A DNA stretch of 32,000 nucleotides. It comes from Candidatus Electrothrix yaqonensis. GTDB taxonomy: Bacteria; Desulfobacterota; Desulfobulbia; Desulfobulbales; Desulfobulbaceae. A program made the translations under genes and the position numbers. Location: assembly GCA_047651235.1 (NCBI GenBank), contig CP178758.1:2550001-2582000 (forward strand), read 5' to 3'. The stretch's first letter is position 1. Each line of letters opens with the position of its first letter. Under the pieces are notes generated by a model, which saw only the letters and a program-made list of their open reading frames with translations, was not told the origin of the DNA and ran no database searches. Positions 2,082-20,045 of this stretch are shown here, one piece after another.

Positions 2082-3068
2082 TCAGAGCATGATAAAGAAA
2101 TACCCAAGGGCAACCAGGGCAATGGAAACCGCCCGGAAGGTCTGACTGAACAGAATCAGCTGCATGGCCAGTCGCGGCTTAAAGATACCGGCATAGTAGG
2201 GAAACTGATGTCGTACAGCCCGGATGGGCGAGGACAGCACATTGCCGATCAGCAGGGTCAGGATCACCGCTTCATTACTCATGCTGCCGTCCTGCAACAG
2301 GGCACCGGCCGCAACCAGGCCTGCGGTGAATTCGGCAGCCACCTGAAGGGCGATAATTGAAACCGCCTGCGGAGAGAGCCAGGCAAGGAAGGTCAGACGG
2401 GCAGCCAGGGTATCCTTCAGCAGCTGAAACATGCCTGCCTCGGAAAGAGCAAAAAAGACAACATAGATCGGCACAGTAAAACGGATGATCTTCCGGATGC
2501 GTTTTTTAAACCGCAGAACTGTACGCTGCCCGGCTTCCCGGATACTGATTTTTTCCGCCGTGTTCTGCACCTGCTTTCCGGCGGTCTGCCTGCCAGCAAG
2601 AAGAAAACGACTCAGCACCGTGATAGCCAGGGTCCGCAGAAGAGCGGCACCCAGGGTCAGGCCGATATAAATGAACGCTGCGCCTCTGATCAGAGGAACT
2701 GTGATAAAAAAGGTGGTAGGGAGGTGGAGGAAATAGGTGGGCAGGCTGTTGAACATATTGGCCAGGACCAGCTCTTTTTTGCTGATTTTTTTCTTTTCAT
2801 AGGCTTCGGAGAGCATGGTGTTGGCTGCCACGCCGGAAAAAAAGGCCATAGAAAAGGCCGCTCCGGTCAGGTCGGACAGGCGGCCGAAGCGGATCATCGG
2901 TGCCGCTGCCACCGACATCTTCCGGGTCCAGTTCAGGGCTTCAATGAACCCGGCAGCAATGAGGCCGACAGAGATAAAGAGCAGCAGGCGGATCAGAGGC
3001 CAGCCCAGTTCGTGCCAGAGCAAAAGGAACGTGTCTGCCAGCGCAGCCATGTACCAGGGACTGTCCAT
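2082..3068 (-). CDS. Polytopic membrane protein, nucleoside-recognition (Gate) domain-like
   Basis: ORF 2082..3167 trimmed to the Met at 3068, so it does not overlap the sppA stop (3082). It has multiple hydrophobic helices. The LLWHELGWPL...MIRFGRLS... layout resembles Gate-domain proteins. The function call is weak. Confidence 0.5.
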   Translation of the reverse strand: MDSPWYMAALADTFLLLWHELGWPLIRLLLFISVGLIAAGFIEALNWTRKMSVAAAPMIRFGRLSDLTGAAFSMAFFSGVAANTMLSEAYEKKKISKKELVLANMFNSLPTYFLHLPTTFFITVPLIRGAAFIYIGLTLGAALLRTLAITVLSRFLLAGRQTAGKQVQNTAEKISIREAGQRTVLRFKKRIRKIIRFTVPIYVVFFALSEAGMFQLLKDTLAARLTFLAWLSPQAVSIIALQVAAEFTAGLVAAGALLQDGSMSNEAVILTLLIGNVLSSPIRAVRHQFPYYAGIFKPRLAMQLILFSQTFRAVSIALVALGYFFIML

Positions 3069-3081
3069 CCGTCCCGGCCTG

Positions 3082-4953
3082 TCAGAGGATTGAGGAGGGC
3101 AGCAGGCAATGGCTGTATATATTGCGCGGGTCTCCCTTGGGCAGAAAAGAAGACGGTCCTCCAGCACTGCGCAGCAGCTGTTCAGCCAGTTTTCTGAAAC
3201 TGTGTGCTGTTGTCAGTCCAGTCTGTCCTGTCAGTTCCGCATGCGCGGTTTCCAGCTGCACCAGCAGACGTTCGAACGGCGTTTTCTCCCCCTCAAAATA
3301 AAAAGCCCGGTCAGCCGGTATTCCGGTCAGCTCCGCCGCCGTAGCAACAGCCTCTTCCAGCCCGCCCAGCTGATCCACCAGCCCGATCTCAAGGGCTGTT
3401 GTGCCGTCCCAGACCCGTCCCTGAGCAACCTCATCTACTGCAGCCGGGTCCATCTTTCTGCCTTCAGCTACAATCCGGACAAACTGCCGATACGTCTGCT
3501 TAATATTCATCTGGACTGCCCTGCGGGTATCCTCGGACAGAGGACGTGTCAGATCACCCTCCCCTGCCAGTTTTGTTGTCCCGACCCCGTCACTGTATAC
3601 CCCGATTTCCGCCAATGACTGCTCGACAGTAGGAAATGCGGCAAAAATACCGATAGAACCGGTTATCGTCCCGGATGAGGCGACGATTTTATCCGCATCT
3701 GCAGCCAGCCAGTAGGCCCCGGAGGCAGCTGTCGCCGCCATGGATACGACAACAGGTTTTCCGGCCTGCTGCAGCCGGATCAGCTCCTGGCGGATCACCT
3801 CCGAGCCGAAGACACTGCCGCCGCCGCTGTCAATACGCAGAACCACAGCACCGACTGTTCGGTCCCTCCGCATTTTGCGGAGCGTTTTTGCCACTCCGGA
3901 GGCGCTGATCTGACCGACTTCGGCATCACCGTAGATAATATCCCCCTGGGCAACAAGGATGGCAATCCCCCTCTGCCGATCTCCTGCCGGACGGCTGTAG
4001 ACAGCCGGAAGCGTTTCCACGTAGCTGGTAAAGGCCACCTGTTTGAAACCGGTTTTCTTCCGGTTCTCTCCGACAAGAGAAATCAGGTGTTCACGGACTT
4101 CAGCCTTTGTTTTGATACCGTCAATCAGGCCCGTATTCAGGGCCATCCGGGCAGAATTTCCTCCGGCAGCCGCCAGTCTCTCCGGCAGCTGCTCACTCAA
4201 CTGTTCAATATCCTGCACGGAAATGCCCCGCTGTGCGGCAATGTCTGCACAGAACCGCTGCCAGAGACTGGTCAGCCACTGCAGATTCGCCTCTTTCACC
4301 TCCGGTGACATGTCATTACGGAGCAGAGGCTCAACAGCAGACTTGAACGTACCTACCCTGAAAACGTGAAAATTGATCCTGAGCTTATCCAGCAGATCGC
4401 GTACGTGCAGCTGAAAAACCCCGAAGCCGTGCAGATCAACCTCTCCCATAGGATGAAGGTATACCTCGTCACTCCGGGCAGCCATATAATACTGCCCCTG
4501 GGTAAAGGTGTCTCCGTAGGCAATAACCGGTTTACCGCTTTTTTTGAATTCATCAATAGCCCGACCGATCTCCTGCAGCTGATCAAGCCCGGCATACTGT
4601 AGTCTGTCCGGTGCCAGGACCAGTAGCTTGATGCGGTCGTCATCAGCTGCTGCCCGAATACCGCTGATAATATCCTGCAGCAGAAGTTCAGTATGCTGAG
4701 GAGTGCCGTCGATGGCATGCAGCATCCGGGCTGCCGGGCCGAGCAGAGACTCCTTTTCCAGGACACTGCCGTACGGCGCCAGCACCAGAGCAGAGCCGGG
4801 CTCTATCTCCGTTTTGGGCTGATGCCCCAGCAGCATAAGAAAGAGACCAATGAAACAAAGAAATAAAACCGTGCTGAGAAGAGCGGTCCCCACGGTCAGG
4901 ATTTTCCACATCCAGCGGATGAGCAGAGCAATGAATCGGAATATTTTTTTCAA
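3082..4953 (-). CDS. sppA: Signal peptide peptidase SppA, 67K (two-domain) type
   Basis: 623 aa with a TTG start. The N-terminus MKKIFRFIALLIRWMWKIL parallels E. coli SppA (MRTLWRFIAGFFKWTWRLL). There are two ClpP/crotonase-like halves with DSGGGSV and SMAATAASGAYW motifs. Confidence 0.9.
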   Translation of the reverse strand: MKKIFRFIALLIRWMWKILTVGTALLSTVLFLCFIGLFLMLLGHQPKTEIEPGSALVLAPYGSVLEKESLLGPAARMLHAIDGTPQHTELLLQDIISGIRAAADDDRIKLLVLAPDRLQYAGLDQLQEIGRAIDEFKKSGKPVIAYGDTFTQGQYYMAARSDEVYLHPMGEVDLHGFGVFQLHVRDLLDKLRINFHVFRVGTFKSAVEPLLRNDMSPEVKEANLQWLTSLWQRFCADIAAQRGISVQDIEQLSEQLPERLAAAGGNSARMALNTGLIDGIKTKAEVREHLISLVGENRKKTGFKQVAFTSYVETLPAVYSRPAGDRQRGIAILVAQGDIIYGDAEVGQISASGVAKTLRKMRRDRTVGAVVLRIDSGGGSVFGSEVIRQELIRLQQAGKPVVVSMAATAASGAYWLAADADKIVASSGTITGSIGIFAAFPTVEQSLAEIGVYSDGVGTTKLAGEGDLTRPLSEDTRRAVQMNIKQTYRQFVRIVAEGRKMDPAAVDEVAQGRVWDGTTALEIGLVDQLGGLEEAVATAAELTGIPADRAFYFEGEKTPFERLLVQLETAHAELTGQTGLTTAHSFRKLAEQLLRSAGGPSSFLPKGDPRNIYSHCLLPSSIL

Positions 4954-6673: not shown

Positions 6674-6974
6674 ATTCCGGGGAACCAGGATGAAAAATTT
6701 CCTTTTTTTCTCCGACCGAGCATCTGGTCGGCCGTTAAGGAGAAGGAATATTATTCTTTTATATCGTTATGTTCTTCAGTGTTTCAGCACGATACTCTAC
6801 ATAAATGTACAGAGAAGTACTCCTTCTACTGCGGAATAATGCAGCTGCTGCAGTTGACAGTGTGCTACAGAATAGTGTAAAAGAAATGCTTTTTCAACAG
6901 AATACTATGACCCGTCTCTCCTGAGAATTTCTTGAGAGCCGGTCTTGAAACTTTCTTTAACCGAGGAGAATATC

Positions 6975-9176
6975 ATGGCTTTTTCGAGGAGGAACTTTCT
7001 CAAATATGCCGCCATGTCTGCCGGGGGCACTGTGCTTGCCGACACCCCTTTTATTTCCGCCAGGGCTAGAGCAGAGGCTGAGGGCGGAAATGTAAGGTAT
7101 GTGCCGACCAGCTGCGAGATGTGCTTCTGGAAATGCGGCGCCATTGCCAAAGTGGTTGACGACAAGGTGGTGAAACTGGAGGGCAACCCGCTTCATCCCC
7201 AGAGCCGGGGCAAACTCTGCGCCCGCGGTCAGGCCGGAATCGGCCAGCTCTACGATGAAAACCGGCTGCAGTACCCGATGATTCGTGTCGAGGGATCAAA
7301 ACGTGGTGAAAACAAGTACGAACAGAAAACTTGGGATGAAGCATTCACCTATATAGCGGAGAAACTCAAAAAAATTCAGGGGAAATACGGTCCGGAATCC
7401 GTTGCCATGATGTCGCACGGCTCTCCGGGTGATTATTTCACCAATCTGCTCAAGGCGATGGGGAGCAGAAATATTGCTTTTCCATCTTTTGCTCAGTGCA
7501 AGGGTATCCGTGATGAGGCGTGGCTGATGACCTACGGGCATAAGCCGGGCACAAGCTGTGAACGGGTTGACTTGGAAAACAGCCGGGTTATTGCGCTGTT
7601 CGGCACTCATCTGGGGGAAAATATGCATAACTCCCAGAATCAGGAATTTGCCGAAGCTGTGAGCCGGGGGGCCAAGGTCATCTGCGTTGATCCCCGCTAC
7701 TCCACCGCCGCCTCCAAGGCCGCCTTCTGGCTGCCCATCAAACCGGGGACCGATACTGCCCTGCTTCTGACCTGGATCAATATTATTATCACCGAGAAGT
7801 TGTACGACAAGGAGTATGTGGAAAAATACACCGAAGGCTTTGCGGAGGTTAAAGAGGCGGTCAAAAAATATACCCCAGAATGGGCTGCCCAGGAAACCGA
7901 GCTGCCCATGCAGCAGATTGTTGAATCAGTCCGGGAGTTGGGTCGGTATGCACCCAATGTTGTTGTTCATCCGGGACGGCATTATTCCTGGTACGGCAAT
8001 GACACCCAGCGGGCCCGGGCTGTGGCGATCATCAATGCCCTGCTCGGTACCTGGGGCCGGAAAGGCGGGATGTGGCTGCCAGCTAAAGCCAAGTTCGCCA
8101 GTTTCAATGATGGCGCCCCGGCATATCCTCCTGCAAACAAAGAACCTGTCATCAAAGGTGATTTTCCCTTTGCCGGAGGTGAGGGCGTGACCCAGGTCGT
8201 ACGGGACACCACCATCACCGGGAAACCGTACCCGATCAAGGCATGGATTGTCGCTGGCACCAATCTGATGAAAGCCCTGCCTGATCAGCGTCTGACCCGC
8301 AAGGCCATCGACAACTTGGACCTTCTGGTTGCTGTTGATCTGTTCCCCACGGAAACCGTGATGCTGGCCGATGTCATCCTGCCTGAATGTACTTACCTAG
8401 AGCGGCATGATGGTCTGTTCAAGCTTTCCACCCGCGAGGCCGGAGTTAGCCTCCGCCAGCCTGCTGTCGAACCCATGTATGATACCAAACCGGCCTGGTG
8501 GATCGGCAGCGAGCTCTGCAAGAAAATGGGGTTCGGCCAGTACGCAGTCAAAGACAACTGGGAAAAACGGATGCGGCGTCAGGCCAAGGCGTGGAAGATC
8601 GATTTCGACGAACTTGCTGATACCGGGTATGTCAGTATTCCGGGCAGCAGGGCCCCCTATATCACCGAGACCAATCAGCCGGTCTTCAACACCTTTCCTG
8701 AAAAAATCGTCCTGTACAGTGAAGATCTGGAAGAACACGGCTTTGATCCGGTGCCCCAGTATGAACGGATTGAGCAGCCCAAGAAAAACACCTACCGCCT
8801 TATCTACGGCCGCAGCCCGGTCCATACCTTCAGCCGGACCATCAATACCCAGTGGCTCTGGGAACTGCAGAAAGAAAATGAAGTGTGGCTGAATAAAAAA
8901 GAAGCGGACCGTATCGGCGTGAAGAACGGCCAGTATGTCCTGCTGGAAAATCAGGATGGTGTGCGGTGCAACAGAGTAAAGGTCCGGGCTACTGAACGGA
9001 TCCGGCGTGACTGCGTCTACATGGTGCACGGATTCGGCCATAATGCGCCCGGGCTGAAACGGGCCGATCAGCGTGGTGCGGATGATCAGCAGCTGATAAC
9101 GAAATACATCGAAGATCCGATCACCGGCGGCACCGGGATGCGGGTGAACTTTGTCAAGATAATCAAGGAGGCCTGA
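6975..9176 (+). CDS. Molybdopterin oxidoreductase catalytic subunit, polysulfide/thiosulfate reductase (PsrA/PhsA)-like, Tat-exported
   Basis: The ATG at 6975 follows GAGGAG (6963-6968). Twin-arginine motif SRRNFLK. N-terminal FeS motif CEMCFWKCG...C. Size about 733 aa. It is followed by FeS and NrfD-type subunits. Confidence 0.85.
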   Translation: MAFSRRNFLKYAAMSAGGTVLADTPFISARARAEAEGGNVRYVPTSCEMCFWKCGAIAKVVDDKVVKLEGNPLHPQSRGKLCARGQAGIGQLYDENRLQYPMIRVEGSKRGENKYEQKTWDEAFTYIAEKLKKIQGKYGPESVAMMSHGSPGDYFTNLLKAMGSRNIAFPSFAQCKGIRDEAWLMTYGHKPGTSCERVDLENSRVIALFGTHLGENMHNSQNQEFAEAVSRGAKVICVDPRYSTAASKAAFWLPIKPGTDTALLLTWINIIITEKLYDKEYVEKYTEGFAEVKEAVKKYTPEWAAQETELPMQQIVESVRELGRYAPNVVVHPGRHYSWYGNDTQRARAVAIINALLGTWGRKGGMWLPAKAKFASFNDGAPAYPPANKEPVIKGDFPFAGGEGVTQVVRDTTITGKPYPIKAWIVAGTNLMKALPDQRLTRKAIDNLDLLVAVDLFPTETVMLADVILPECTYLERHDGLFKLSTREAGVSLRQPAVEPMYDTKPAWWIGSELCKKMGFGQYAVKDNWEKRMRRQAKAWKIDFDELADTGYVSIPGSRAPYITETNQPVFNTFPEKIVLYSEDLEEHGFDPVPQYERIEQPKKNTYRLIYGRSPVHTFSRTINTQWLWELQKENEVWLNKKEADRIGVKNGQYVLLENQDGVRCNRVKVRATERIRRDCVYMVHGFGHNAPGLKRADQRGADDQQLITKYIEDPITGGTGMRVNFVKIIKEA

Positions 9177-9177
9177 T

Positions 9178-9735
9178 ATGCCCAGATACGTCATGGTCAT
9201 TGACCAGTCAAGATGCATCGGCTGCATGGCATGCGTGGTGGCATGCAAACGCGAAAACGATGTGCCGCCGGAAAACTACCGCACCAGAGTGCTGGAAATG
9301 GTCCGGGGAAAATTCCCTGATCTGACCACGGAAATGCGGTCCGAACTCTGCAATCATTGCGACCAAGCACCCTGCGTGACTATCTGTCCCACCGGTGCTT
9401 CACATCATGAGGAGGACGGCACAGTACAGATTGACCGGAAAAAATGTGTGGGCTGCAAGGCATGTATTACCTCCTGCCCGTATAATGTCCGCTATATCAA
9501 CGAAGAGCACGGCTATGCCGACAAATGTTCCTTCTGTCAGCACCGTCTCAAGGAAGGCGACAAACCGGCCTGTGTTGTCAGCTGTGTCGGCGGCTCAAGG
9601 ATATTCGGCGATCTGGATGATCCGAGCAGCGAGGTTTCCGAAATTCTGCGGAAAACCAGCAACCGGGTGCTGAAAAAAGAGGTCGGCACCGGGCCGAATG
9701 TCTATTATATCAATCAGTACGCCAAAAGGGCATAA
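9178..9735 (+). CDS. 4Fe-4S ferredoxin-type electron-transfer subunit (PsrB/NrfC/DmsB-like)
   Basis: Starts 1 nt after the A-subunit stop. Cys clusters CIGCMACVVAC, CNHCDQAPC, CVGCKACITSC and CSFC...C are present. Confidence 0.9.
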   Translation: MPRYVMVIDQSRCIGCMACVVACKRENDVPPENYRTRVLEMVRGKFPDLTTEMRSELCNHCDQAPCVTICPTGASHHEEDGTVQIDRKKCVGCKACITSCPYNVRYINEEHGYADKCSFCQHRLKEGDKPACVVSCVGGSRIFGDLDDPSSEVSEILRKTSNRVLKKEVGTGPNVYYINQYAKRA

Positions 9736-9747
9736 GGAGGGAGCGTA

Positions 9748-10758
9748 ATGGAACTGATCTCCAACGGGAACGAAGTCGTTGAACGGGTTATTACAGGTAC
9801 CAACGCCATTACCTATCCGGTTATGCATGTCTGGGACTGGCGGGTAGCCATTTATCTCTTTCTTGGCGGTCTTGCAGGCGGTCTGATGACCATGAGTGCG
9901 ATCAACTATCTCCGGCCGGGCAGAAAAGGCCCGCTGCAGAGCATCTGCTGCTGGCAGATACCGGTCATGGCCCCGATCCTCCTGACCATCGGGCTGCTTT
10001 TCCTCACACTGGATCTTGAGCGGAAAATGCACGGCTATCTGTTCTACACCGCCTTTAAGCCGCTTTCCCCGATGAGCTGGGGTGCGTGGATCGTCCTTAT
10101 TATTTATCCGCTGATGATCCTCTATGCCCTTGCTGCTCTGCCGGATGAGGTAAAAAACGGGATAAAAAATGGTTTTATCAGAGGGGTGGCTGATGTCATG
10201 CAGCCGCATTTGCGCAAACTGGCCAAAGTAAATGTCATTTTCGGTATACTGCTTGCTATCTATACCGGTATCCTGTTGAGTACCTTTGTGGCGCGGCCTC
10301 TGTGGAACTCGGCGATTCTGCCGTTGCTTTTCCTGACCAGCGGTATGAGCACCGGAGCTGCGGTAATGATTATCGTCGCCAAGAATAAAGAGGTTAAACT
10401 CTTCTTCACCAAGCTGGATATCTGGCTGATTATGGCAGAATTGCTGGTGCTCGCGCTTCTGTTCTACGGGCATTATACAGCCGATGCAGCCCATCGGGCA
10501 GCCATCATGCCGTTCTTTGACACTTCGCATGGGCATTTCCCTTATTTCCTGAGTATTGTTATTATCGGAATTGTTCTTCCGCTGGCAATCGTGCTCAAGT
10601 TTCTTGAGGTGACCGGGAAGCATACAGAGGAGTTGACCATGTCCGGTCTCTTCCTGATGAATACCAGTGCCGTGCTTGTTCTGATCGGTGGACTGATTGT
10701 CCGTTTTGCCTTGGTCTATGCAGGCCAGCTTTCCGGCTACGGGTATGCGATGATGTAG
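9748..10758 (+). CDS. NrfD/PsrC-type integral membrane quinol-interacting subunit
   Basis: 336 aa with about 8 hydrophobic helices, in the third position of an A-B-C operon. The RBS AAGGAGG lies just upstream. Confidence 0.85.
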   Translation: MELISNGNEVVERVITGTNAITYPVMHVWDWRVAIYLFLGGLAGGLMTMSAINYLRPGRKGPLQSICCWQIPVMAPILLTIGLLFLTLDLERKMHGYLFYTAFKPLSPMSWGAWIVLIIYPLMILYALAALPDEVKNGIKNGFIRGVADVMQPHLRKLAKVNVIFGILLAIYTGILLSTFVARPLWNSAILPLLFLTSGMSTGAAVMIIVAKNKEVKLFFTKLDIWLIMAELLVLALLFYGHYTADAAHRAAIMPFFDTSHGHFPYFLSIVIIGIVLPLAIVLKFLEVTGKHTEELTMSGLFLMNTSAVLVLIGGLIVRFALVYAGQLSGYGYAMM

Positions 10759-11006: not shown

Positions 11007-12299
11007 ATGGAATCTGCGGACCAACGAAGCAATGATCATACGGAGAGCCGAACCGGACAAGCCTTTCTGGAAAGAATTCCGGAACCGGTCTACCAGGAGC
11101 TGCTGGAAACCTTTGCCGCAGCATACGGTTTTATTAATGGGAAGCAGCTCCGCATGGCAGAGTATTTTGTCGGACTTCACCGTTCTCTTGCCGATGACCT
11201 TCTTTCGTTTATTGAGAAGGTCACCCAGGAGATACGGCTGAACAGGCTGCCTCTGCCTGCTGCCCCGGAAGGCTTTGCCCCGGCTGCGGAAAATCTTCTC
11301 CCCTTTGAACGGAAAAACTGTTTCTCTTTTGCCTACTTTGATGCCGCTCTGACAGAGCAGGGAATCAGGATAATAGAGTTTCAGGCATTTCCGACACACT
11401 CCGCCGTCTCCGTCGCAATGAACAATTTTTTGTATGAAAAGCTCGCGCTGCCCGATTCGCCGCTGTTCCCCAACGCGCCCAATGCACAGCCGGAAGATTT
11501 TCATCGCCTGATGCGGCAGATTATCTGCGGAGATGCGGAAAACGGCATTGTTATTACGGATCGGAATCTTGCCGGGCAGAAGACAAACTTTTCTTTCTAT
11601 GTCGTACAGGAGGCATTGGGAGGAAAAGCAGATGTCGTTGATGCAAAAGAAATTTTCGAGCGGAACGGCAGGCTTTTCTATACGCACCCGGACCGGGGAA
11701 TGCAGCAGGTGCAGCGGCTGTACAATCGGATTGTTCCTACGGAAGCTATGGTTGAAGACAATTATCCGGCTGATCCGGAAGCCCTGCCTTTCCGTTTTGA
11801 CAGCCGGTACCGGGACTTGACCTTTGTCAACCATCCCTGCAAATATCTTGAGATTTCCAAGGGGCTGCTGCCGTACATTACCGATCCGCTCAATCCTCCC
11901 TGCTATGAGCTGGAAGAGACCGCAGACCATTTTTTTTCCGGCGCATGGACCTGTTCGGACTTTGTCTGGAAGGATAAATGGGGCTATGCCGGACATACCA
12001 ACGTGCTGCTCCCCGATCTGCAGCTGCTCGAACAGCTTTCCAAGGACAATATGCTCAGCAGATATATTGCCCAGCAGAAAATTCCTTTTGAAGTGTTCCG
12101 CACCGGAGACGGACTGGAAAAAATTGTCGAGCTGCGCTTTATGGTAGTGCAGTCCGAGGATACTCAACTGATAACGCCGATGGCGCGGATCGGGCATGTC
12201 CACAGGACACCGGGCTGCGGGCCGGTCTATAAAGTGCATTTTGGTGACAACAATATGCCCGGATACGGATTTTGTTCTGTTTTAGGAATGAAAATTTAA
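11007..12299 (+). CDS. Hypothetical protein with distant ATP-grasp-like features (glutathionylspermidine-synthase / circularly permuted type)
   Basis: 430-aa ORF with ordinary composition. FAYFDAALTEQGIRIIEFQAFPT resembles the xRFDFxxxxGxxKxxExNADTP block of the YgiC/GSP-synthase preATP-grasp. A later segment (WKDKWGYAGH...YIAQQKIPF...ELRFMVV) resembles the nucleotide-binding half. The family assignment is from recall only. Confidence 0.55.
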   Translation: MESADQRSNDHTESRTGQAFLERIPEPVYQELLETFAAAYGFINGKQLRMAEYFVGLHRSLADDLLSFIEKVTQEIRLNRLPLPAAPEGFAPAAENLLPFERKNCFSFAYFDAALTEQGIRIIEFQAFPTHSAVSVAMNNFLYEKLALPDSPLFPNAPNAQPEDFHRLMRQIICGDAENGIVITDRNLAGQKTNFSFYVVQEALGGKADVVDAKEIFERNGRLFYTHPDRGMQQVQRLYNRIVPTEAMVEDNYPADPEALPFRFDSRYRDLTFVNHPCKYLEISKGLLPYITDPLNPPCYELEETADHFFSGAWTCSDFVWKDKWGYAGHTNVLLPDLQLLEQLSKDNMLSRYIAQQKIPFEVFRTGDGLEKIVELRFMVVQSEDTQLITPMARIGHVHRTPGCGPVYKVHFGDNNMPGYGFCSVLGMKI

Positions 12300-12845: not shown

Positions 12846-13061
12846 GATATATACCAAATCTTCGGCTATCCCCTGACTCCGCTTCTGTTTATTACCGGGA
12901 ACTGCTGGATTATCTTCTTTTCCGTGACAAACCGTCCGATGGCAGTGCTGTTCGCGCTCGGCACCATCGCTGCGGGCATGGCGGTCTATCATTTTTTCTC
13001 ACCTGAGGAAAAGGAAAGGGAAAAAAAGACCGGCAGCCGGCAGGCAGAGATCTTACGGTAA
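12846..13061 (+). pseudogene. Orphan 3' fragment of an APC-type amino-acid permease
   Basis: The frame reads DIYQIFGYPLTPLLFITGNCWIIFFSVTNRPMAVLFALGTIAAGMAVYHFFSPEEKEREKK...*. This matches the usual last transmembrane helices and tail of APC permeases (..GYP..P..F...). No permease-like sequence lies upstream. Confidence 0.4.
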
Positions 13062-14186
13062 AGGTATTCTCGCCAGCCAGGTGTGTGCTTGTCGAACCTC
13101 GGTACCGTCCGGGTACGTTGTTTCCTGATCAAGTTCCTTAACGATCTGTACTTTCGGGATGCTACCGAGATGCCGATCAAACAGGAGGAAATTTTTGCTG
13201 CGCTGACTATCCGCCCATTTCACCTCAAGCATCAAGCAGGGCGATGTCTCTCTGGTCACAAGAAAATCAATTTCGTTGCCGTCCTTGGTCTGCAAATAAT
13301 GCAGACCTAACTCCTCGCCCAGACAGTCTTCACGAAAATGAATCTCTTTCAGCAGAGCACAGGCTGTTGCATTTTCCAGGCGTATTCCTCTATCTCCGAG
13401 AACCTGCCCAGTGTCGTAAAAATAAAATTTCGGTGTTTTGAGTAATGATCTGGCAACATTGCGATGATAGGGAGTTACTCGGAAAATGATATACATATTT
13501 TCCAGCAGAGTCAGCCACCTCTTCACGGTCTTGTCGCTCACCTGTAAATCCTGTGCCAGCGAGCTGAAGGAAACCGGGCTGCCGACTCGTTTTCTCAGCA
13601 GCTGAATCAGGGTCTCAACCGCTGTGATCTGCTGGACGTTTTCCAGCTCTATGAGGTCCTGCCTGATGATAATGTCCAGGTGAGAGCGTTTCCAACGTTT
13701 GTAAAACCTTTCTTCTCCCTCCAGGTACGGTTCTGGGAAACCACCGATTTCAAGCAGTTGGTCTAAAGCGGATTCAGGGGGGATCTCCGGGCGCAAGGAG
13801 CTGAGTTCTTTGAGATCAAAGGGATGAAGTCTGAACTGAAAAAAACGTCCTGCCAAGGAGTCACCCACTTTTTTATAGGTATCCAACTTGGCACTGCCGG
13901 TGACCACGAGCGCAGGCGGGATGCCTTCAGTATCGTACACTCCTTTCAGCCATGATTTCCAGTTGTTCAGTTTATGCAGCTCATCAAAAATGACAGCTTG
14001 TTTTTTTCTGTCCCAGATGCGTTCCAGCAGTCTGAGCCGGTGTTCGGGACTATCAAAGTTGAGATAGTCAAAATCCTGAACCAGCATTTTGGAAAGGGTG
14101 GTTTTGCCGGATTGTCTCGGGCCGGTAATAAGAATAATCTTGCGGGCAAGATCCTCTTTGACGGCTTGGGTAAGATATCGGTCCAT
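13053..14186 (-). CDS. AAA+ ATPase with C-terminal DUF4143-type domain
   Basis: ORF 13053..14339 trimmed to the ATG at 14186 (MDRYLTQ...). Walker A ITGPRQSGKTTL and Walker B VIFDELH are present. The C-terminal half (GGFPE..., LHYLQTKDGNEIDFL) is typical of AAA_14/DUF4143 proteins. Confidence 0.85.
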   Translation of the reverse strand: MDRYLTQAVKEDLARKIILITGPRQSGKTTLSKMLVQDFDYLNFDSPEHRLRLLERIWDRKKQAVIFDELHKLNNWKSWLKGVYDTEGIPPALVVTGSAKLDTYKKVGDSLAGRFFQFRLHPFDLKELSSLRPEIPPESALDQLLEIGGFPEPYLEGEERFYKRWKRSHLDIIIRQDLIELENVQQITAVETLIQLLRKRVGSPVSFSSLAQDLQVSDKTVKRWLTLLENMYIIFRVTPYHRNVARSLLKTPKFYFYDTGQVLGDRGIRLENATACALLKEIHFREDCLGEELGLHYLQTKDGNEIDFLVTRETSPCLMLEVKWADSQRSKNFLLFDRHLGSIPKVQIVKELDQETTYPDGTEVRQAHTWLARIPLP

Positions 14187-14514
14187 TCCGACTATTATAG
14201 AGCCAATGCCGAAAAAGTCAAGACTGTCCCGGAATGAGGTCCGAAAAAGTCGGACAGGGAGCTTTCGTCGCATATATTGTCTACTCAGCCTATTTTGCCC
14301 GGCGTTTCCCCAAGACCCTGCTCCTGGCCGTCGCAGCAAGCCTTATCGCCCTAGGGCTTCCTCGGCTTCGGGACAGGTATCATTGGTAGTCCTGCAACAA
14401 TTTGATTTCCACGGGGCAGGGTATAAACCTTCGCCTTCAGGCGGAAATGTCTTTAGCCGATTCTTCCTCCCGGTGTACAATAAGTTCTCAGGAATAACAA
14501 CCGGGAGAAAGCTG

Positions 14515-16434: not shown

Positions 16435-17760
16435 ATGATGAATTATCAGGCAGCATGGGACTTCCTTGATCAGCTCCAGTTTTTCAAAATCAAACTGGGC
16501 CTGGATTCCATGAACCGGTTTCTGGAGCGGTTGGGTAATCCGCACCGCGACCTGCCCTGTATCCATATCGGCGGCACCAACGGCAAAGGATCCGTCGGGG
16601 CAACGCTCTGTTCCATCCTCACCGCAGCCGGATATACCACCGGATTTTATACCTCCCCGCATCTCACTTCGGTACGGGAACGGTTCAGGATCGGGGACAG
16701 GTACATCAGCAAAGCCGATTTCGCCCGGCTGATCAGTCAGATTCATGCGGTGCTTGACGGCGGCCAGATCACCTATTTTGAATGCACCACGGTACTGGCC
16801 ATGCTCTGGTTTGCCGAGCAGAAGGTTGATCTCGCCATTCTGGAGGTCGGCATGGGCGGCAGACTGGACGCCACCAATGTCATCACGCCCCTGCTCTCCA
16901 TCATCACTAATGTGAGCATGGATCACGAGCAGTACCTCGGCAGCACCTTGGCCGAGGTGGCCGGGGAAAAAGCAGGAATCATCAAAAACGGCATTCCGGT
17001 GGTCTCCGGTGCAGCAGACGATGATTCCACCAGGATTATCCGAATGACCTGTGATGCCCGGCAGGCCCCGCTCTTTCTTTTTGACCGGGAATTTTCCGGC
17101 AGCCCGGCAGGGGAGGAGCAGACGCTCTGGCAGTATCTGGGTTTGGACGGCCAAGTCCTGCACGATCTGCCCATGCCGCTGCGGGGAAATTATCAGGTGA
17201 ACAACGGCTCGCTTGCCCTTGCCGCAGTTGAGCTGCTCCGCCAGCAGGGCAGGACAATCACGGAAGAGCAGATCCGTACCGGTCTTGCCCGGACCCGCTG
17301 GCCCGGCCGGCTGGAGCTCTTCCGCCTCAACGGTGAAGGTGTATTGGTTGACAAAGAAAACGAAGGCCAGAATTTTCTCCTGGACGGCGCCCATAATCCA
17401 GCTGGTGTGCAGGCCCTGAAACAGGAACTGCGAAATTTTCTCCGCAACCGCCTGATTCTGATCTGGGGAGCTATGAGCGATAAGGATCTGCGGGCCACTC
17501 TGGAGGAAATTGCCCCGCTGGCTGATATGCTTATTTTCACCCGGGCAGAATCGGAGCGTTCTGCCGGGACAAGCCTGCTCAAAGAAAGCCTGTCGGAAGA
17601 TATGCATCAGAAGGTGATCTGCAAGGAGACGGTGCAGGCCGCCCTGACCCAGGCCCGTGTGCTGGCCACCGGGGATGACCTGATCTGCGTGGCCGGATCC
17701 CTGTACCTTGTGGGCATGGTCCGTAAACAGCTTCTGGGGGAGCTGGTAAGTGATGAATGA
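16435..17760 (+). CDS. folC: Bifunctional folylpolyglutamate synthase / dihydrofolate synthase
   Basis: 441 aa. HIGGTNGKGSV P-loop, SPHL, and DATNV and Mur-ligase-like blocks are present, and the length is typical for FolC. Confidence 0.9.
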   Translation: MMNYQAAWDFLDQLQFFKIKLGLDSMNRFLERLGNPHRDLPCIHIGGTNGKGSVGATLCSILTAAGYTTGFYTSPHLTSVRERFRIGDRYISKADFARLISQIHAVLDGGQITYFECTTVLAMLWFAEQKVDLAILEVGMGGRLDATNVITPLLSIITNVSMDHEQYLGSTLAEVAGEKAGIIKNGIPVVSGAADDDSTRIIRMTCDARQAPLFLFDREFSGSPAGEEQTLWQYLGLDGQVLHDLPMPLRGNYQVNNGSLALAAVELLRQQGRTITEEQIRTGLARTRWPGRLELFRLNGEGVLVDKENEGQNFLLDGAHNPAGVQALKQELRNFLRNRLILIWGAMSDKDLRATLEEIAPLADMLIFTRAESERSAGTSLLKESLSEDMHQKVICKETVQAALTQARVLATGDDLICVAGSLYLVGMVRKQLLGELVSDE

Positions 17761-18046
17761 GATGAATGAATATTCCGTATACAGTTTCGGCACTGATGAG
17801 GCAGATATCAGGGCAGAACGGCAGAAGGCCAGAGCCCTGCGCAAGACCCGCTGGTGGCAGCAGAAAACCGCTGCAGGCATCTGTCATTACTGTCAGCGTA
17901 AGGTTCCTTTTCAGGAACTGACTATGGATCATGTCGTGCCGCTGTCGATAGGCGGACGCTCTACCAAGGGAAATCTGGTGCCCTGCTGCAAAGAATGCAA
18001 TACAGCCAAAAAGGCTGACCTGCCCCCGGAGCTTGACGAACTCTGA
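17753..18046 (+). CDS. Small HNH endonuclease-domain protein
   Basis: CHYCQRKV...MDHVVPLSIGG...NLVPCCKECNTAK is a complete HNH motif with two Cys pairs. The ATG at 17753 (GTG at 17750) overlaps the folC stop at 17758-17760. Confidence 0.75.
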   Translation: MNEMNEYSVYSFGTDEADIRAERQKARALRKTRWWQQKTAAGICHYCQRKVPFQELTMDHVVPLSIGGRSTKGNLVPCCKECNTAKKADLPPELDEL

Positions 18047-18138
18047 GCGGCTGGAGCCGGTGACATTCTGTTCGTCCGGAAAGCATGTTGTCGTAGGAGT
18101 TTACTGAGGAATCCTTCCGAAGTTTCAAAGTTCCCCCT

Positions 18139-18157
18139 GCTCCGCAGGAGCTTTTTT
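18139..18157 (+). terminator. Short rho-independent terminator after folC-HNH
   Basis: GCTCC-GCA-GGAGC (18139-18151) is followed by T6 (18152-18157). Confidence 0.5.
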
Positions 18158-18257: not shown

Positions 18258-19433
18258 ATGTTCGGTGTACTGCGACATGCCGGGTGCGTTATGGCGCCCG
18301 AAGAACAACAGGAATGGACAGGCCATGTCTGCGGCCTGTGCCTTGCCCTGAAAAATCAGTACGGCCACTTCGCCCGCCTGACCACCAATTATGATGCCGC
18401 CCTGCTCTCGGCGCTGTATGATGCCCAGACCACGCAGCTCCAGAACAGTCGTATCAGTTACTGCCCGCTCCGCAGTTCACGCAGACGCAGAGCAAAGATC
18501 ATTACCCCGGATAATCCCGGAGTGCGGTATGCGGCTGCCATGTCTCTGATCATGGCGTCAAGCAGGATCAAAGATCATATCCAGGACAACGAAACAGGGT
18601 TGCGATATATACGAGGCCCTGCATCCGGGGTTGCCGAGCGATGGATGCGGGCGGCACGAAAAGGTGCTGCCGAGCTGGGCTTTGCTGCGGAACGCATTAC
18701 GCAGCTGCTGCAGCATCAAACCGAGGTGGAAGCCCGGACAGGCCGGGAGTTCTCTGTCTATGCCGAACCCACGGAGCAGGCGGTCGGCGCGGCATTTGAA
18801 CATACCGCCGTCCTGACTGAACAGCCCGGCAACAGAGACGGCCTTCGTGCAGCAGGACGTATGTTCGGCCGCATCATGTATCTGCTGGACAGTTATGAGG
18901 ATTACGGGCAAGACCTTGCAGCACACCGGTTCAACGCTTTGGCTGCTTCCTTCCCGGCAGCGGAGTGGCGGCCGCAGGCTGTCCGTCTCTTCCGGCAGGC
19001 CTATGCAGATTTGAAGAAACACGTCAGCCGACTGGATCTCTCCAGCCCGGCCCTGATTCACGCCCTGCTTCTCCGTAAACTTAAGCAGAAGGGCTGCAGG
19101 AATCTGCATATCTGCACGAAATCCCCTGCAGGCTGCCGCCCGGATGCGGGACAGGCGGGCACTGCTGAAGAATCATACAGTATTTTCAACAGTATATCCA
19201 GCAGGCTCTGCTGGCAGGATGACTACTACGTTCATGAAAACGACAGAAGGAGACACCGTTCTTCAGGCCCCTGGTGCTGTGATTGCGGCTGCGACTGCTG
19301 CAGTTGTTTCCGAGATAGCGAATGTTGTGACTGCAACGGTTCCGACAGCACTTGTTTTCCGGATTGCAGCTCCTGTGACTGCAGCTGCTGTGACGGATGC
19401 GATTGCGGCGGCTGTGACTGCGGCTGCAGCTGA
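18258..19433 (+). CDS. DUF5685-like protein with hyper-cysteine C-terminal tail
   Basis: ORF 18186..19433 trimmed to the ATG at 18258 (MFGVLRHAGC...). FGVLR...C-x17-CGLCLALKNQYG.FARLTTNYDAALLSAL matches my recollection of the DUF5685 N-terminal signature. The same frame runs without interruption into a 52-aa tail containing 21 Cys. Confidence 0.7.
   Translation: MFGVLRHAGCVMAPEEQQEWTGHVCGLCLALKNQYGHFARLTTNYDAALLSALYDAQTTQLQNSRISYCPLRSSRRRRAKIITPDNPGVRYAAAMSLIMASSRIKDHIQDNETGLRYIRGPASGVAERWMRAARKGAAELGFAAERITQLLQHQTEVEARTGREFSVYAEPTEQAVGAAFEHTAVLTEQPGNRDGLRAAGRMFGRIMYLLDSYEDYGQDLAAHRFNALAASFPAAEWRPQAVRLFRQAYADLKKHVSRLDLSSPALIHALLLRKLKQKGCRNLHICTKSPAGCRPDAGQAGTAEESYSIFNSISSRLCWQDDYYVHENDRRRHRSSGPWCCDCGCDCCSCFRDSECCDCNGSDSTCFPDCSSCDCSCCDGCDCGGCDCGCS
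19275..19430 (+). other. Cys/Asp-rich low-complexity coding segment (tail of the 18258..19433 CDS)
   Basis: CCDCGCDCCSCFRDSECCDCNGSDSTCFPDCSSCDCSCCDGCDCGGCDCGCS has 21 Cys and 10 Asp in 52 residues by direct count. The DNA is built from TGY/GAY/GGC triplets, so all frames are low-complexity. Confidence 0.8.
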
Positions 19434-19472
19434 ACAAAGCGTTACTATACGCTATACGTACAGGATAAATCT

Positions 19473-20045
19473 ATGAGCCCTGTTTCCCATGTCCTTATCG
19501 GATGGCTGGCGGCAAATGCTGCCCGGGCCGAACGCCGCGAACGGCTGCTGATTACGGTTGCCGGAATTATTCCTGATGCGGACGGTCTTGTCCTTGTTGC
19601 TGATCTTGCTGCAGGCCACAGCACCCGGCAGCTGGAATTCTGGAGCCGGTATCATCATGTGCTGGGCCATAATATCGGCTTTGCCCTTCTGATCACTGCC
19701 GGAGCCGCTCTTCTGACCCGCAAACGTAAAGCCGTCACAGCCCTGTTTGTCTGGCTCAGTTTTCACCTGCACCTGCTCGGCGATCTGGTCGGGTCACGGG
19801 GACCGGACGGCAACCAATGGCCGATCCCTTATCTGCTGCCCTTTTCCGATGCATGGCAGTGGACCTGGGAAGGACAGTGGCTCCTGAATTCCTGGCAGAA
19901 TCTGCTGATTACTGTTCTGGCGATCGGAATAACTTTCTATCTGGCCTGGAAAAAAGGATATTCTCCTCTGGAAATGATTTCGGACAGGGCAGATAAAGGG
20001 TTTGTCGCAACCCTGCGCAACCGGTTCGGTAATCCGAAAAACTAA
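19473..20045 (+). CDS. YdjM/DUF457-type membrane-bound metal-dependent hydrolase
   Basis: 190 aa. The N-terminal SHVLIGWL, the IIPDADGL motif, the His-rich RYHHVLGHN and HLHLLGD, and several hydrophobic helices fit the family. Confidence 0.6.
   Translation: MSPVSHVLIGWLAANAARAERRERLLITVAGIIPDADGLVLVADLAAGHSTRQLEFWSRYHHVLGHNIGFALLITAGAALLTRKRKAVTALFVWLSFHLHLLGDLVGSRGPDGNQWPIPYLLPFSDAWQWTWEGQWLLNSWQNLLITVLAIGITFYLAWKKGYSPLEMISDRADKGFVATLRNRFGNPKN

Follow-up and report, generated by a model that had tools for sequence, protein, structure and literature searches.

Endogenous prenylation of cysteine residues in cytoplasmic proteins is regarded as a eukaryotic trait. The protein farnesyltransferases and geranylgeranyltransferases are, to our knowledge, not endogenous bacterial systems, and we know of no S-prenylation by any enzyme of the IPPS fold. 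The closest described systems are ComQ, PalQ and StheQ, IPPS-fold enzymes whose prenylated substrate is a peptide specified by a neighbouring gene (bioRxiv 10.64898/2026.08.29.745113; PMC13290415). PalQ modifies its peptide at or near the C-terminus (PMC10853753), and StheQ acts likewise; MoeN5 also takes an acceptor other than IPP (PMC7839719). According to a 2026 review, the characterised trans-IDS-like peptide prenyltransferases all target Trp and not Cys (PMC13290415). Here we describe a member of DUF5685, a family in which a prenyltransferase-like fold appears to be combined with cysteine strings, either fused to it or carried on adjacent J-domain proteins.

The gene, its family and its reading frame

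The window (the whole stretch of 32,000 nucleotides of Candidatus Electrothrix yaqonensis DNA that was analysed) encodes a DUF5685-family protein with a C-terminal cysteine string on its forward strand, at positions 18258..19433 (391 aa plus stop). Retranslation of 18258-19433 yields the 391-aa protein exactly as quoted in the preliminary description, including the 21 Cys and 10 Asp of its last 52 residues, and NCBI XOF32761.1, 'DUF5685 family protein [Candidatus Electrothrix sp. YB6]', matches it at 100% identity. Members of the DUF5685 family share the start at ATG 18258; the longest open reading frame (GTG 18186) and one database call (ATG 18195) are longer solely because of the choice of start codon. 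On the same strand, 3' of the upstream HNH gene, lies a terminator-like hairpin with a T-run (18136..18157), a pattern match only, which suggests that the DUF5685 gene may start its own transcript.

Membership in DUF5685 was confirmed, together with the accession PF18937 given in the preliminary description. The protein matches this profile with E=3.9e-31 and 108.9 bits against a cut-off of 26.7, its residues 1-261 falling on profile positions 1-251 of 272, and all 64 aligned homologues match the profile as well. The motifs first quoted as marks of the family (MFGVLR, CGLC.ALK and TNYD) are found in the protein, where M1-F2-G3, C25, C28, N44 and D46 are family-conserved. In alignment A3, which covers the two subfamilies and identities as low as 15-20%, G3, C25, C28, C69, D106, D110, G204, D211, D215, D219 and N226 are invariant, and a further conserved polar set in DUF5685 consists of R40, N44, D46, E158 and N226. 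The family is large, with 2,158 representative clusters at E<=0.001 and thousands of members. Its tail-bearing subfamily is found in Desulfobacterota, Chloroflexota and Actinomycetota; the tail-less proteins, with E values as low as 2e-111, form the core of PF18937 and apparently come from gut Firmicutes. Other searches added little: an NCBIfam scan of the window protein returned only a meaningless phasin match (E=0.21), a PDB search with the single sequence gave no match, and the low-GC fragment P0192 gave no useful match as a query. The UniRef names 'Regulatory protein' and 'Expression regulator' are unsupported, and no DNA-binding domain was found in the protein. As the preliminary description had supposed, no characterised protein of this architecture was found in the literature searched, where 'DUF5685' appears in one paper, only as a list entry.

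Two ways in which the tail might prove spurious had been named at the outset, namely an upstream indel that would place the real C-terminus in another frame, and a lineage-specific extension that is not expressed. Neither is borne out by the data. An independent Logan assembly has 0 nucleotide differences across the gene, and comparison with an 84%-identical relative gives pN/pS values of 0.13 for the body, 0.34 for the linker and 0.12 for the tail, with indels in frame; the value for the tail indicates that it is under purifying selection in the Cys frame. These observations effectively rule out a frameshift as the origin of the tail. An origin by tandem repetition or slippage is likewise ruled out, since a single 15-nt x2 array was found in the tail DNA and the Cys codons are mixed (13 TGC and 8 TGT). 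An alternative-frame ORF (19144..19476) is present, and some database homologues are recorded with Ala/Thr/Val tails; against this, the Cys-frame tail is conserved in homologues from three phyla. The same distribution bears on the suggestion of a link to the Ni/S cofactors of cable-bacterial fibres, which is unsupported and is set aside because the tail-bearing subfamily, being widespread outside cable bacteria, also occurs in Chloroflexota and Actinomycetota. Hence an artefact or a lineage-specific oddity, be it a frameshift, an assembly error, an untranslated extension or a cable-bacterium carrier of sulfur or of a Ni/S cofactor, is scarcely credible, and the gene and its tail are almost certainly real and translated. 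The Ala/Val/Thr reading is the state of a handful of evidently frameshifted database homologues.

A prenyltransferase-like body with a cysteine tail

The body of the protein (residues 1-290; 18258..19127, + strand) is predicted by AF2, Foldseek and profile searches to adopt an all-alpha, trans-isoprenyl-diphosphate-synthase-like fold with a small beta-hairpin at residues 64-82. In the AF2 model of the window protein, pLDDT exceeds 90 across these residues, and Foldseek finds MoeN5 as the best match (E=3e-4, TM 0.62 on target) followed by about 50 trans-prenyltransferases, the top matches being MoeN5, GGPPS, HexPPS and OPPS. MoeN5 is again the best match (E=6e-4, TM 0.56/0.60) of a second, independent AF2 model, built for a tail-less relative that is about 20% identical (pLDDT 90). 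When profiles were compared with PDB sequences, a polyprenyl synthetase ranked first (E=0.021 with alignment A1, 0.0026 with A3), and trans-prenyltransferases, MoeN5 among them, accounted for 7 of the 13 matches listed, with local profile alignments falling on FARM and SARM. Pfam polyprenyl_synt was not matched at E<=10 by any of 64 members, a weak Pfam scan of 64 members (E<=10) returned neither an isoprenoid nor a metallothionein family, and hhalign of A1 against the single sequence of E. coli IspA was uninformative (probability 0.5%). There are no polyprenyl synthases among the ORFs of the 80 fetched loci. Because polyprenyl_synt is unmatched and only the profile search against the PDB reaches E=0.0026, we file the protein as fold-level kin and not as a family member. 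The body very probably has the fold and ancestry of a prenyltransferase, as a remote relative of the trans-isoprenyl-diphosphate synthases. The prenyltransferase fold had been missed in the preliminary description.

Candidate counterparts of both Asp-rich motifs can be recognised in the body. That of the first (FARM, DDxxD) is D106-H-I-Q-D110 (18573..18587, + strand), with D106 and D110 invariant, at the C-terminal end of helix 87-109; the second Asp of DDxxD is replaced by His, and the HMM alignment pairs the motif with 'vhDDvvDes' of the polyprenyl synthetase 4lob and also with IspB. Canonical tail-less DUF5685 proteins (alignment A2) have DDxxD at the FARM position. The counterpart of the second motif (SARM), D211-S-Y-E-D215-Y-G-Q-D219 (18888..18914, + strand), has three invariant Asp and aligns with 'iiDDilDYtsD' of 4lob and with 'liDDllDYnaD' of E. 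coli IspB; relative to 'DDilDYtsD', positions 1, 5 and 9 are kept and the second Asp is lost. The body also holds three family-invariant Cys, two of them in C25-G-L-C28 (18330..18341, + strand; invariant in alignments A1, A2 and A3) and the third, C69 (18462..18464, + strand), in a 'CPLR' motif that follows beta-strand 64-68 according to the alignments and the AF2 model. C25/C28 and C69 together are a candidate metal site, for Zn or Fe-S.

A linker predicted to be disordered (residues 291-339; 19128..19274, + strand; pLDDT <50) connects the body to the tail and includes the basic patch R330-R-R-H-R334 (19245-19259, + strand) as well as W339. In homologues, the median number of K/R in the 25 aa preceding the tail is 4, and runs like RRRKRIRPRRR are seen in many of them. 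The cysteine string itself, residues 340-391 (19275..19430, + strand), ends in CDCGGCDCGCS, and its 52 residues (19275-19430) read CCDCGCDCCSCFRDSECCDCNGSDSTCFPDCSSCDCSCCDGCDCGGCDCGCS. Given the 1.5% Cys of 18 neighbouring ORFs, the probability of at least 21 Cys in 52 residues is about 5e-25, and the tail is indeed, as first noted, denser in Cys than metallothionein (40% versus about 33%). A stringent Cys tail is present in 148 of the 174 full-length homologues, most of the others being truncated, frameshifted or endowed with a sparser Cys/Asp/Gly tail, so that a similar tail occurs in at least 85% of these homologues from three phyla. Tails of the subfamily have a median of 20 Cys, and by its Cys fraction the window tail ranks at the 41st percentile. 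Pooled tails consist of 40% Cys and 16% Asp, with 3.5% F+Y+W+H and almost no Lys or Arg, and Cys spacings of 0, 1 or 2 residues (CC, CxC, CxxC) make up 84% of the gaps. Composition is conserved among homologues; sequence and length are not. Judging from these sequences, the tail is typical of its subfamily and not special to Electrothrix.

Partner genes and explanations for the string

The tail-less relatives provide an indication of what the string belongs to. Downstream DNA was sufficient for 51 distinct tail-less DUF5685 genes, and for 44 of these the next gene encodes at least 3 Cys in the last 15 residues of its product, the gap between the two genes usually being -20 to 0 nt; such a neighbour accompanies 1 of 66 tail-bearing genes. 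In 28 of the 44 partners the N-terminal 90 aa include an HPD motif, and in a sample of ten the DnaJ model PF00226 is significant in six (E 1e-17 to 1e-20) and TPR models in three. The partner protein usually joins a J-domain and TPR, as in the architecture of the eukaryotic cysteine-string protein. A Hsp70 paralogue in the same operon was seen at 3 loci, an adjacency that is real but rare. Of the 44 partner tails, 14 contain the terminal motif C[DE]C..GG..C.C (shuffle mean 0.0), as do 17 of the 192 fused tails (shuffle mean 1.4), and the window tail ends in this motif common to the partner strings. At all loci and in all homologues examined, the string is either fused to DUF5685 or placed at the end of a gene overlapping DUF5685, and it occupies the extreme C-terminus in nearly all cases (exception P0230). 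Partner strings are interspersed with hydrophobic residues, in contrast to the strongly acidic fused tails. Upstream of tail-less DUF5685 genes lie small ORFs that were rejected as substrates, since they encode charged helical peptides without Cys.

Since a tail-less DUF5685 gene is almost always followed by an overlapping cysteine-string gene, we infer that the string is likely to be the cognate partner of the domain, and most probably its substrate; the tail is accordingly held to be probably the target of the enzyme itself, rather than a simple metal sponge. It should be emphasized that fusion or adjacency denotes a functional link and leaves its nature unspecified, as a shared metal site or binding would give the same pattern. 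For the tail-bearing subfamily, all-vs-all clustering of the ORFs of 80 loci found no neighbour shared beyond genus-level synteny (maximum 19/80), and seven further contexts from other phyla are all different. In the window, FolC, HNH, YdjM and MtnA were considered as functional partners and rejected as unrelated housekeeping genes; the pairing with YdjM is not kept in a related Desulfobulbales-type contig.

The explanation that we consider best as a whole, at a probability of about 0.4, is a cytoplasmic protein of two modules, the DUF5685 domain (1-290) and a disordered C-terminal cysteine string (340-391) on a basic flexible linker, in which the string would be the substrate of an S-prenylation. 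The altered Asp-rich motifs D106xxxD110 and D211xxxD215xxxD219 would be the Mg2+/diphosphate-binding motifs, which would bind Mg2+ and prenyl diphosphate and then ionise the prenyl diphosphate; the prenyl group would be captured by string thiolates, for which a Zn(Cys)3 site of the kind used by other thiol-alkylating enzymes may provide activation, and the C-terminus would end up multiply S-prenylated and membrane-seeking. A fused protein would act on its own tail or on that of a neighbouring molecule. S-prenylation of the string by DUF5685, with self-modification in the fused form, is our best guess. Taken separately, covalent S-prenylation as the relation between domain and string is offered tentatively, with the odds somewhat against it. 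A broader reading is rather doubtful: the DUF5685 family would be a new branch, directed at Cys, of the trans-IDS-like peptide prenyltransferases, and would comprise the first protein-cysteine prenyltransferases endogenous to bacteria. The targets would be the strings of J-domain/TPR co-chaperones, which would correspond to the eukaryotic cysteine-string protein, or, in this Electrothrix gene and in Chloroflexota and Actinomycetota, the tail of the enzyme itself, with the fused form self-lipidating and membrane-anchored. Several points speak against S-prenylation: about twenty Cys are far beyond the need of a lipid anchor, the fused tails, at 16% Asp, are strongly acidic where the strings of Firmicutes-type partners are more hydrophobic, a self-modifying enzyme would be close to a single-turnover device, and the homology to prenyltransferases is remote (no polyprenyl_synt match, Foldseek E only about 1e-4).

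A serious rival, although an unlikely one, is that the Cys/Asp string folds round Zn2+, Cu+, Cd2+ or Fe-S as a store, buffer, sensor or metal donor, in which case the three invariant Cys of the body would belong to the same metal system. Its metallothionein-like composition (40% Cys, CC/CxC/CxxC in 84% of gaps, few aromatics and almost no Lys/Arg), conserved where sequence and length are not, is consistent with such a role, as are the predicted disorder of the tail, which resembles that of apo-metallothioneins, and the metal site that invariant C25/C28/C69 suggest in the body. The sole metallothionein among the PDB matches is human MT-1A, a weak and not significant match of the A1 profile (E=4.4), and the Pfam and NCBIfam scans returned no metallothionein family. 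A metal store, however, needs neither a tie to DUF5685 nor an extreme C-terminal position, the partner strings contain interspersed hydrophobic residues, and tails rich in Asp rather than Lys would make already anionic clusters more negative still. Because about 90 loci of three phyla show no recurrent metal-resistance or metal-homeostasis gene beside the DUF5685 gene, and because the strings are genetically tied to DUF5685, the metal-thiolate or polysulfide reading of the tail appears weakened.

The string could also act unmodified by docking reversibly in DUF5685, where it might serve, for example, as a switch responding to redox or thiol stress, as a J-protein/Hsp70 handle or as a pseudo-substrate that autoinhibits the domain. 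The pattern of fusion and adjacency proves a functional link only, the linker is flexible, and the J-domain partners and the Hsp70 paralogue in 3 operons point to protein-protein interactions of the chaperone type; yet the five invariant Asp aligned with prenyltransferase catalytic motifs argue for catalysis, the conserved polar set argues in the same direction, and docking would lead one to expect a defined sequence, whereas conservation extends only to composition and a short terminal motif. We regard docking of this kind as improbable. The known chemistry of ComQ, PalQ and StheQ (PMC13290415; bioRxiv 10.64898/2026.08.29.745113) raises the further prospect that W339, directly before the string, is the acceptor and that the Cys have another role. 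A Trp no more than 3 residues from the tail start is present in 27 of 148 homologues (about 3% expected), and one within -12..+6 in 53 of 148; 'DLW' occurs in several partner strings. Most homologues, however, are without Trp in that region, and many partner strings have F, Y, I or L instead, so that Trp is not a family-defining acceptor; since Trp is enriched there yet not general, the idea of a conserved acceptor at this place was rejected, and prenylation at W339 is very improbable.

Should DUF5685 prove enzymatically active, bacteria would have a new post-translational modification system and their own counterpart of the cysteine-string protein, and Cys prenylation would gain a new biocatalyst. 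Should metals bind to the tail instead, DUF5685 would amount to a metallothionein linked to an enzyme, widespread and so far unrecognised. In both cases, a domain of unknown function is turned into a testable hypothesis, with named residues to mutate and mass-spectrometric read-outs. The finding is probably not special for cable-bacterium biology, because the gene is not lineage-specific.

Comparison with known systems

With ComQ, PalQ and StheQ, DUF5685 shares a predicted all-alpha IPPS-superfamily fold in which the first Asp-rich motif appears to be kept and the second to be degenerate. The acceptor of these enzymes is a ribosomal peptide or protein, not IPP, and is encoded beside the enzyme; the proposed DUF5685 acceptor is likewise adjacent or fused. 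The ComQ-type placement of an acceptor gene beside the enzyme, seen for 44/51 tail-less DUF5685 genes, is an analogy of organisation and not a proof of an enzyme-substrate pair. Unlike these enzymes, DUF5685 is not detectably in their sequence family, its N-terminus has a three-Cys motif and a beta-hairpin instead of their usual N-terminal helices, and its acceptor would be many Cys thiols, whereas they modify one Trp. MoeN5, IspB, GGPPS and HexPPS resemble it as the best structural matches to the two family models (TM about 0.6) and in Asp-rich motifs that align. The differences from MoeN5 and the polyprenyl diphosphate synthases are an identity of only 12-15%, the unmatched polyprenyl_synt, a FARM counterpart of the form DHxxD, and the extra Cys motif and tail of the window protein. 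At the one position seen among the basic IPP-binding residues, the Lys of 'GKT' aligns with Pro ('ePTE').

DNAJC5/CSP has a similarly dense C-terminal cysteine string, which is multiply S-lipidated by DHHC palmitoyltransferases for membrane anchoring, and its layout of J-domain, linker and cysteine string is that of the operon partners of tail-less DUF5685. The window protein differs in that it has no DnaJ match, the fused tails are acidic and not hydrophobic, and the candidate modifier has a prenyltransferase fold instead of the DHHC fold, the lipidation being putative. Metallothioneins (mammalian MT, fungal Cu-thioneins and bacterial SmtA/MymT) are alike in very high Cys content, in CxC/CC/CxxC spacing, in few aromatics and in ligand-free disorder, but the tail is part of a 391-aa protein, is rich in Asp without Lys, is tied to DUF5685 and lies in a context unrelated to metals. 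Finally, the protein farnesyl- and geranylgeranyltransferases are alpha-alpha-barrel heterodimers of unrelated fold that modify one or two Cys, compared with about twenty here; their substrates (Ras, Rab; CaaX, CC, CXC) nevertheless share with the window protein a polybasic stretch followed by C-terminal CXC/CC, and their Zn2+-activated thiolate and Mg2+/diphosphate chemistry is the chemical model for the S-prenylation proposed for DUF5685.

The gene and its cysteine tail

The open reading frame at 18258-19433 (+) translates to 391 residues, in agreement with the preliminary description, and its product is 100% identical to the NCBI entry 'DUF5685 family protein [Candidatus Electrothrix sp. 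YB6]'. Residues 1-261 match the Pfam DUF5685 model (E=3.9e-31, 108.9 bits against a cut-off of 26.7), whose accession, PF18937, is the one given in the preliminary description; an NCBIfam scan of the protein returned nothing further. Translation should begin at the ATG at 18258, because M1-F2-G3 is nearly invariant across the family. The labels 'Regulatory protein' and 'Expression regulator' used in UniRef have no support. Of the final 52 residues (19275-19430), 21 are Cys and 10 are Asp; at the background Cys frequency of 1.5% in 18 neighbouring ORFs, a stretch of this length would have that many Cys or more with a probability of ~5e-25.

It had been cautioned earlier that the tail might result from a frameshift or be an unexpressed extension, and neither objection holds. 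An independent Logan assembly (L095, SRR31704081), syntenic with the window around the gene, shows 0 nucleotide differences over it. Every indel relative to a metagenomic relative (L094, 84% identical) is in frame, and pN/pS against this relative is 0.13 in the body (residues 1-290), 0.34 in the linker and 0.12 in the tail; by this comparison, the tail is constrained in its Cys frame as strongly as the catalytic-looking body. The alternative Ala/Val/Thr-rich ending appears in a few database homologues (P0072, P0183, P0186, P0190 and P0225). There it corresponds to a Cys/Asp tail read in the +1 frame, and the five records probably contain a sequencing frameshift or a gene-calling mistake. A slippage-prone repeat was rejected as the source of the tail DNA, which holds one 15-nt x2 array only and uses both Cys codons.

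An exhaustive search returned 2,158 representative homologue clusters at E<=0.001. Among 174 homologues with an intact N-terminus and the second Asp motif, 148 carry a stringent Cys tail (median 49.5 aa, 20 Cys, 43% Cys), while the other 26 are mostly truncated, frameshifted or equipped with a sparser Cys/Asp/Gly tail. Taken together, the tails consist of C 40%, D 16%, G 15%, S 6%, E 4%, N 3%, K 0.5% and R 1.3%. In nearly all homologues the string occupies the extreme C-terminus (P0230, with ~25 residues beyond its Cys-rich block, is an exception), and a basic run often stands before it. In 111 of the 148 tails, no more than 3 residues come after a closing C[DE]C. In Cys fraction the window tail ranks at the 41st percentile, and on this sequence survey the Cys tail is a hallmark of the family, not a peculiarity of this genome. 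The tail is carried, among other named organisms, by Electrothrix, Desulfonema and Desulfococcaceae on the Desulfobacterota side, Herpetosiphon, Ardenticatenaceae and others in the Chloroflexota, and many mycelial actinomycetes, including Streptomyces, Amycolatopsis, Nocardia and Nonomuraea. This distribution over Electrothrix, Chloroflexota and actinomycetes lends no support to the speculative link with the Ni/S conductive fibres of cable bacteria. Most tail-bearing proteins known to date from loci L001-L080 and the named matches belong to bacteria that are filamentous or mycelial (Electrothrix, Desulfonema, Herpetosiphon, Anaerolineae, Chloroflexales and actinomycetes), which may reflect sampling bias.

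Fold and motifs of the body

The AlphaFold2 model, built with 64 homologues, has pLDDT >90 over residues 1-290 and is disordered from residue 298 on. In a Foldseek search against the PDB, its top matches are all trans-prenyltransferases, with MoeN5 (E=3e-4, TM 0.62 on target) ahead of GGPPS, hexaprenyl-PP and octaprenyl-PP synthases and others. A second, independent model, of the tail-less P0265 (~20% identical to the window protein, pLDDT 90), again finds MoeN5 best (E=6e-4, TM 0.56/0.60), with polyprenyl synthases next. The family profile A1 searched against all PDB sequences places the polyprenyl synthetase 4lob on top (E=0.021), and the broader profile A3, which spans both subfamilies, reaches a best E of 0.0026 with 4jxy, IspB, MoeN5 and GGPPS among its matches; this sequence-profile agreement with the predicted fold needs no structural model. 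An hhalign comparison with single-sequence IspA was uninformative.

Local profile alignment sets 'kieDHvaD' (D106, D110) opposite the first catalytic Asp-rich motif of the prenyltransferases, 'vhDDvvDes', 'GRimyLlDsyeDyaaD' (D211, D215, D219) opposite the second, 'GnafqiiDDilDYtsD', and 'ePTE' opposite 'GKTs'. Canonical tail-less members have a textbook DDxxD at the first of these sites. Residues G3, C25, C28, C69, D106, D110, G204, D211, D215, D219 and N226 are invariant in both subfamilies. None of the 64 DUF5685 members scanned against Pfam matches the polyprenyl_synt family at E<=10. From the two models, the profiles and the register of the motifs, we interpret the body as distantly related, at the level of the fold, to the trans-isoprenyl diphosphate synthases. 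It would be a protein outside the polyprenyl_synt family that has kept the Mg2+/diphosphate-binding framework and gained a three-Cys motif.

The string as tail or as neighbouring gene product

A tail-less subfamily of ~280-300 aa forms the core of the Pfam model (E down to 2e-111, full model length). These forms, which we take to be Firmicutes-type, come mainly from metagenome contigs, gut and other host-associated. In their loci the next gene usually abuts or overlaps the DUF5685 stop by 4-20 nt, and its product bears a cysteine string at its extreme C-terminus (e.g., '...CCDLWIADSLCECMGGDLCTCI', 'CCCCCGDDCCSDLCTLYICDSCCECFGGDLCTCF', '...LVCWCGCECCRSSGCRACC' and '...LLCECFDSCDC'). Among distinct genes whose downstream sequence extends for 700 nt or more, such a partner follows 44 of the 51 that lack the tail and 1 of the 66 that bear it. 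The terminal motif C[DE]C..GG..C.C, which the window tail end CDCGGCDCGCS fits, occurs in 14 of 44 partner strings (shuffle mean 0.0) and 17 of 192 fused tails (shuffle mean 1.4). This fused-or-adjacent complementarity is classic Rosetta-stone evidence and indicates, from gene arrangement, that string and DUF5685 domain are cognate partners and that the string is not a generic metal sponge attached by chance.

Of ten partners sampled, six match PF00226 (DnaJ; E 1e-17 to 1e-20) and three match TPR models, and HPD lies within the first 90 residues in 28 of the 44. Proteins from L096-L175 and L091-L093 combine a J-domain (HPD), a G/Y-rich linker, TPR and a C-terminal cysteine string, the same layout as the eukaryotic cysteine-string protein; examples overlapping the stop of tail-less DUF5685 are L132:1846-2493, L104:4864-5670 and L106:4821-5249. 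An Hsp70 paralogue shares the operon at three loci only (L104:2220-4001, L123:2181-4001 and L113:5647-7575).

One tail-less clade sits in a conserved operon (L091:2432-12873, L092, L093) that encodes, in order, an FtsK/SpoIIIE-like ATPase, a small charged ORF, DUF5685, a Cys-ended 230-aa protein, a 340-aa Cys-containing unknown, a Fer4_12/radical-SAM-like 182-aa protein, a Ser/Thr kinase, an unknown, an FHA protein and a ClpB-like AAA+; L093 additionally has genes for an LHH toxin and a Gln-amidase upstream.

ORF clustering of 80 genome loci revealed no conserved neighbour of tail-bearing genes beyond genus-level synteny, and seven further contexts from other phyla each differ. Around the gene in the window lie folC, a small gene for an HNH protein, one for a membrane protein of the YdjM family, and mtnA, none of them a metal or isoprenoid gene. 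The stand-alone 98-aa HNH endonuclease gene (17750-18046) overlaps the folC 3' end and is followed by a terminator-like hairpin (18136-18157) before the DUF5685 gene, an arrangement also present in L095. In Herpetosiphon only, and maybe by coincidence, the gene immediately before tail-bearing DUF5685 on the same strand is lgt (L085:4965-5864, L002:6965-7867), which encodes prolipoprotein diacylglyceryl transferase, itself an enzyme that lipidates Cys. An acyl-CoA dehydrogenase gene adjoins tail-bearing DUF5685 at L024:5977-7185 and 15 other Streptomyces-type loci, L079 and L088:7125-8357, a weak signal from several actinomycete loci and one unrelated metagenomic contig.

Elsewhere, the window holds a PsrABC-like operon of the polysulfide/thiosulfate/tetrathionate reductase type (6945-10758; molybdopterin oxidoreductase catalytic subunit, 4Fe-4S dicluster subunit and NrfD-type membrane subunit) and a truncated 'bacterial-like globin' (PF01152, 15657-16151) with a hydrophobic, signal-peptide-like N-terminus that may be exported. 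The ORF at 14996-15385 matches the DprA winged-helix domain only, perhaps a dprA remnant or mis-delimited gene, and adjoins a DUF4143/AAA_14 ATPase gene (13053-14339, minus strand). Three ORFs have no Pfam match: 11007-12299 (430 aa), 1237-1851 (204 aa) and 2082-3167 (361 aa).

Possible functions of the string

From the predicted fold, the motifs and the gene coupling, we propose, with a probability of roughly 35-40%, that the Asp/Mg2+ site of DUF5685 would ionise a prenyl diphosphate and that the prenyl group would pass to thiolates of the cysteine string, a transfer that in the Electrothrix protein would be self-modification. Eukaryotic cysteine strings are multiply S-lipidated membrane anchors, and thiol-alkylating enzymes commonly use a Cys-rich Zn site for thiol activation. 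Against S-prenylation, the homology to prenyltransferases is remote, the fused tails are acidic, twenty Cys exceed the needs of a lipid anchor, and we know of no precedent for an IPPS-fold enzyme. According to a review, Trp is the target of all characterised IPPS-fold peptide prenyltransferases (PMC13290415). A ComQ-like prenylation of the Trp preceding the tail appears highly improbable, since Trp is enriched there in homologues but not conserved.

The main rival keeps to the earlier reading of a metal-thiolate, metallothionein-like tail, acting with the Cys site of the body. The composition and disorder of the tail fit it, but metal-related gene context is absent, and neither the strict coupling of the string to DUF5685 nor its C-terminal placement is what it would lead one to expect; we consider it somewhat unlikely. 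Non-covalent docking or a redox role of the string seems distinctly less probable. Taken further, S-prenylation of the string would amount to a Cys-prenylation system endogenous to bacteria, with cysteine-string proteins of their own; this extension is tentative and slightly less probable than the proposal itself, and would be of high interest if true.

In the literature searched, DUF5685 appears only as a list entry, and bacterial J-proteins with cysteine strings do not appear. The window gene is an ordinary member of a catalogued, uncharacterised family; the architecture and the gene-pair logic are, as far as this literature goes, unreported. MoeN5, the best structural match, has a non-IPP acceptor (PMC7839719). 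ComQ, PalQ and StheQ are IPPS-fold enzymes that prenylate peptides encoded adjacent to them, for PalQ and StheQ at or near the peptide C-terminus (bioRxiv 10.64898/2026.08.29.745113; PMC13290415). By analogy, we rate such trans-IDS-like peptide prenyltransferases with adjacent substrates as the closest kind to the DUF5685/cysteine-string pair.
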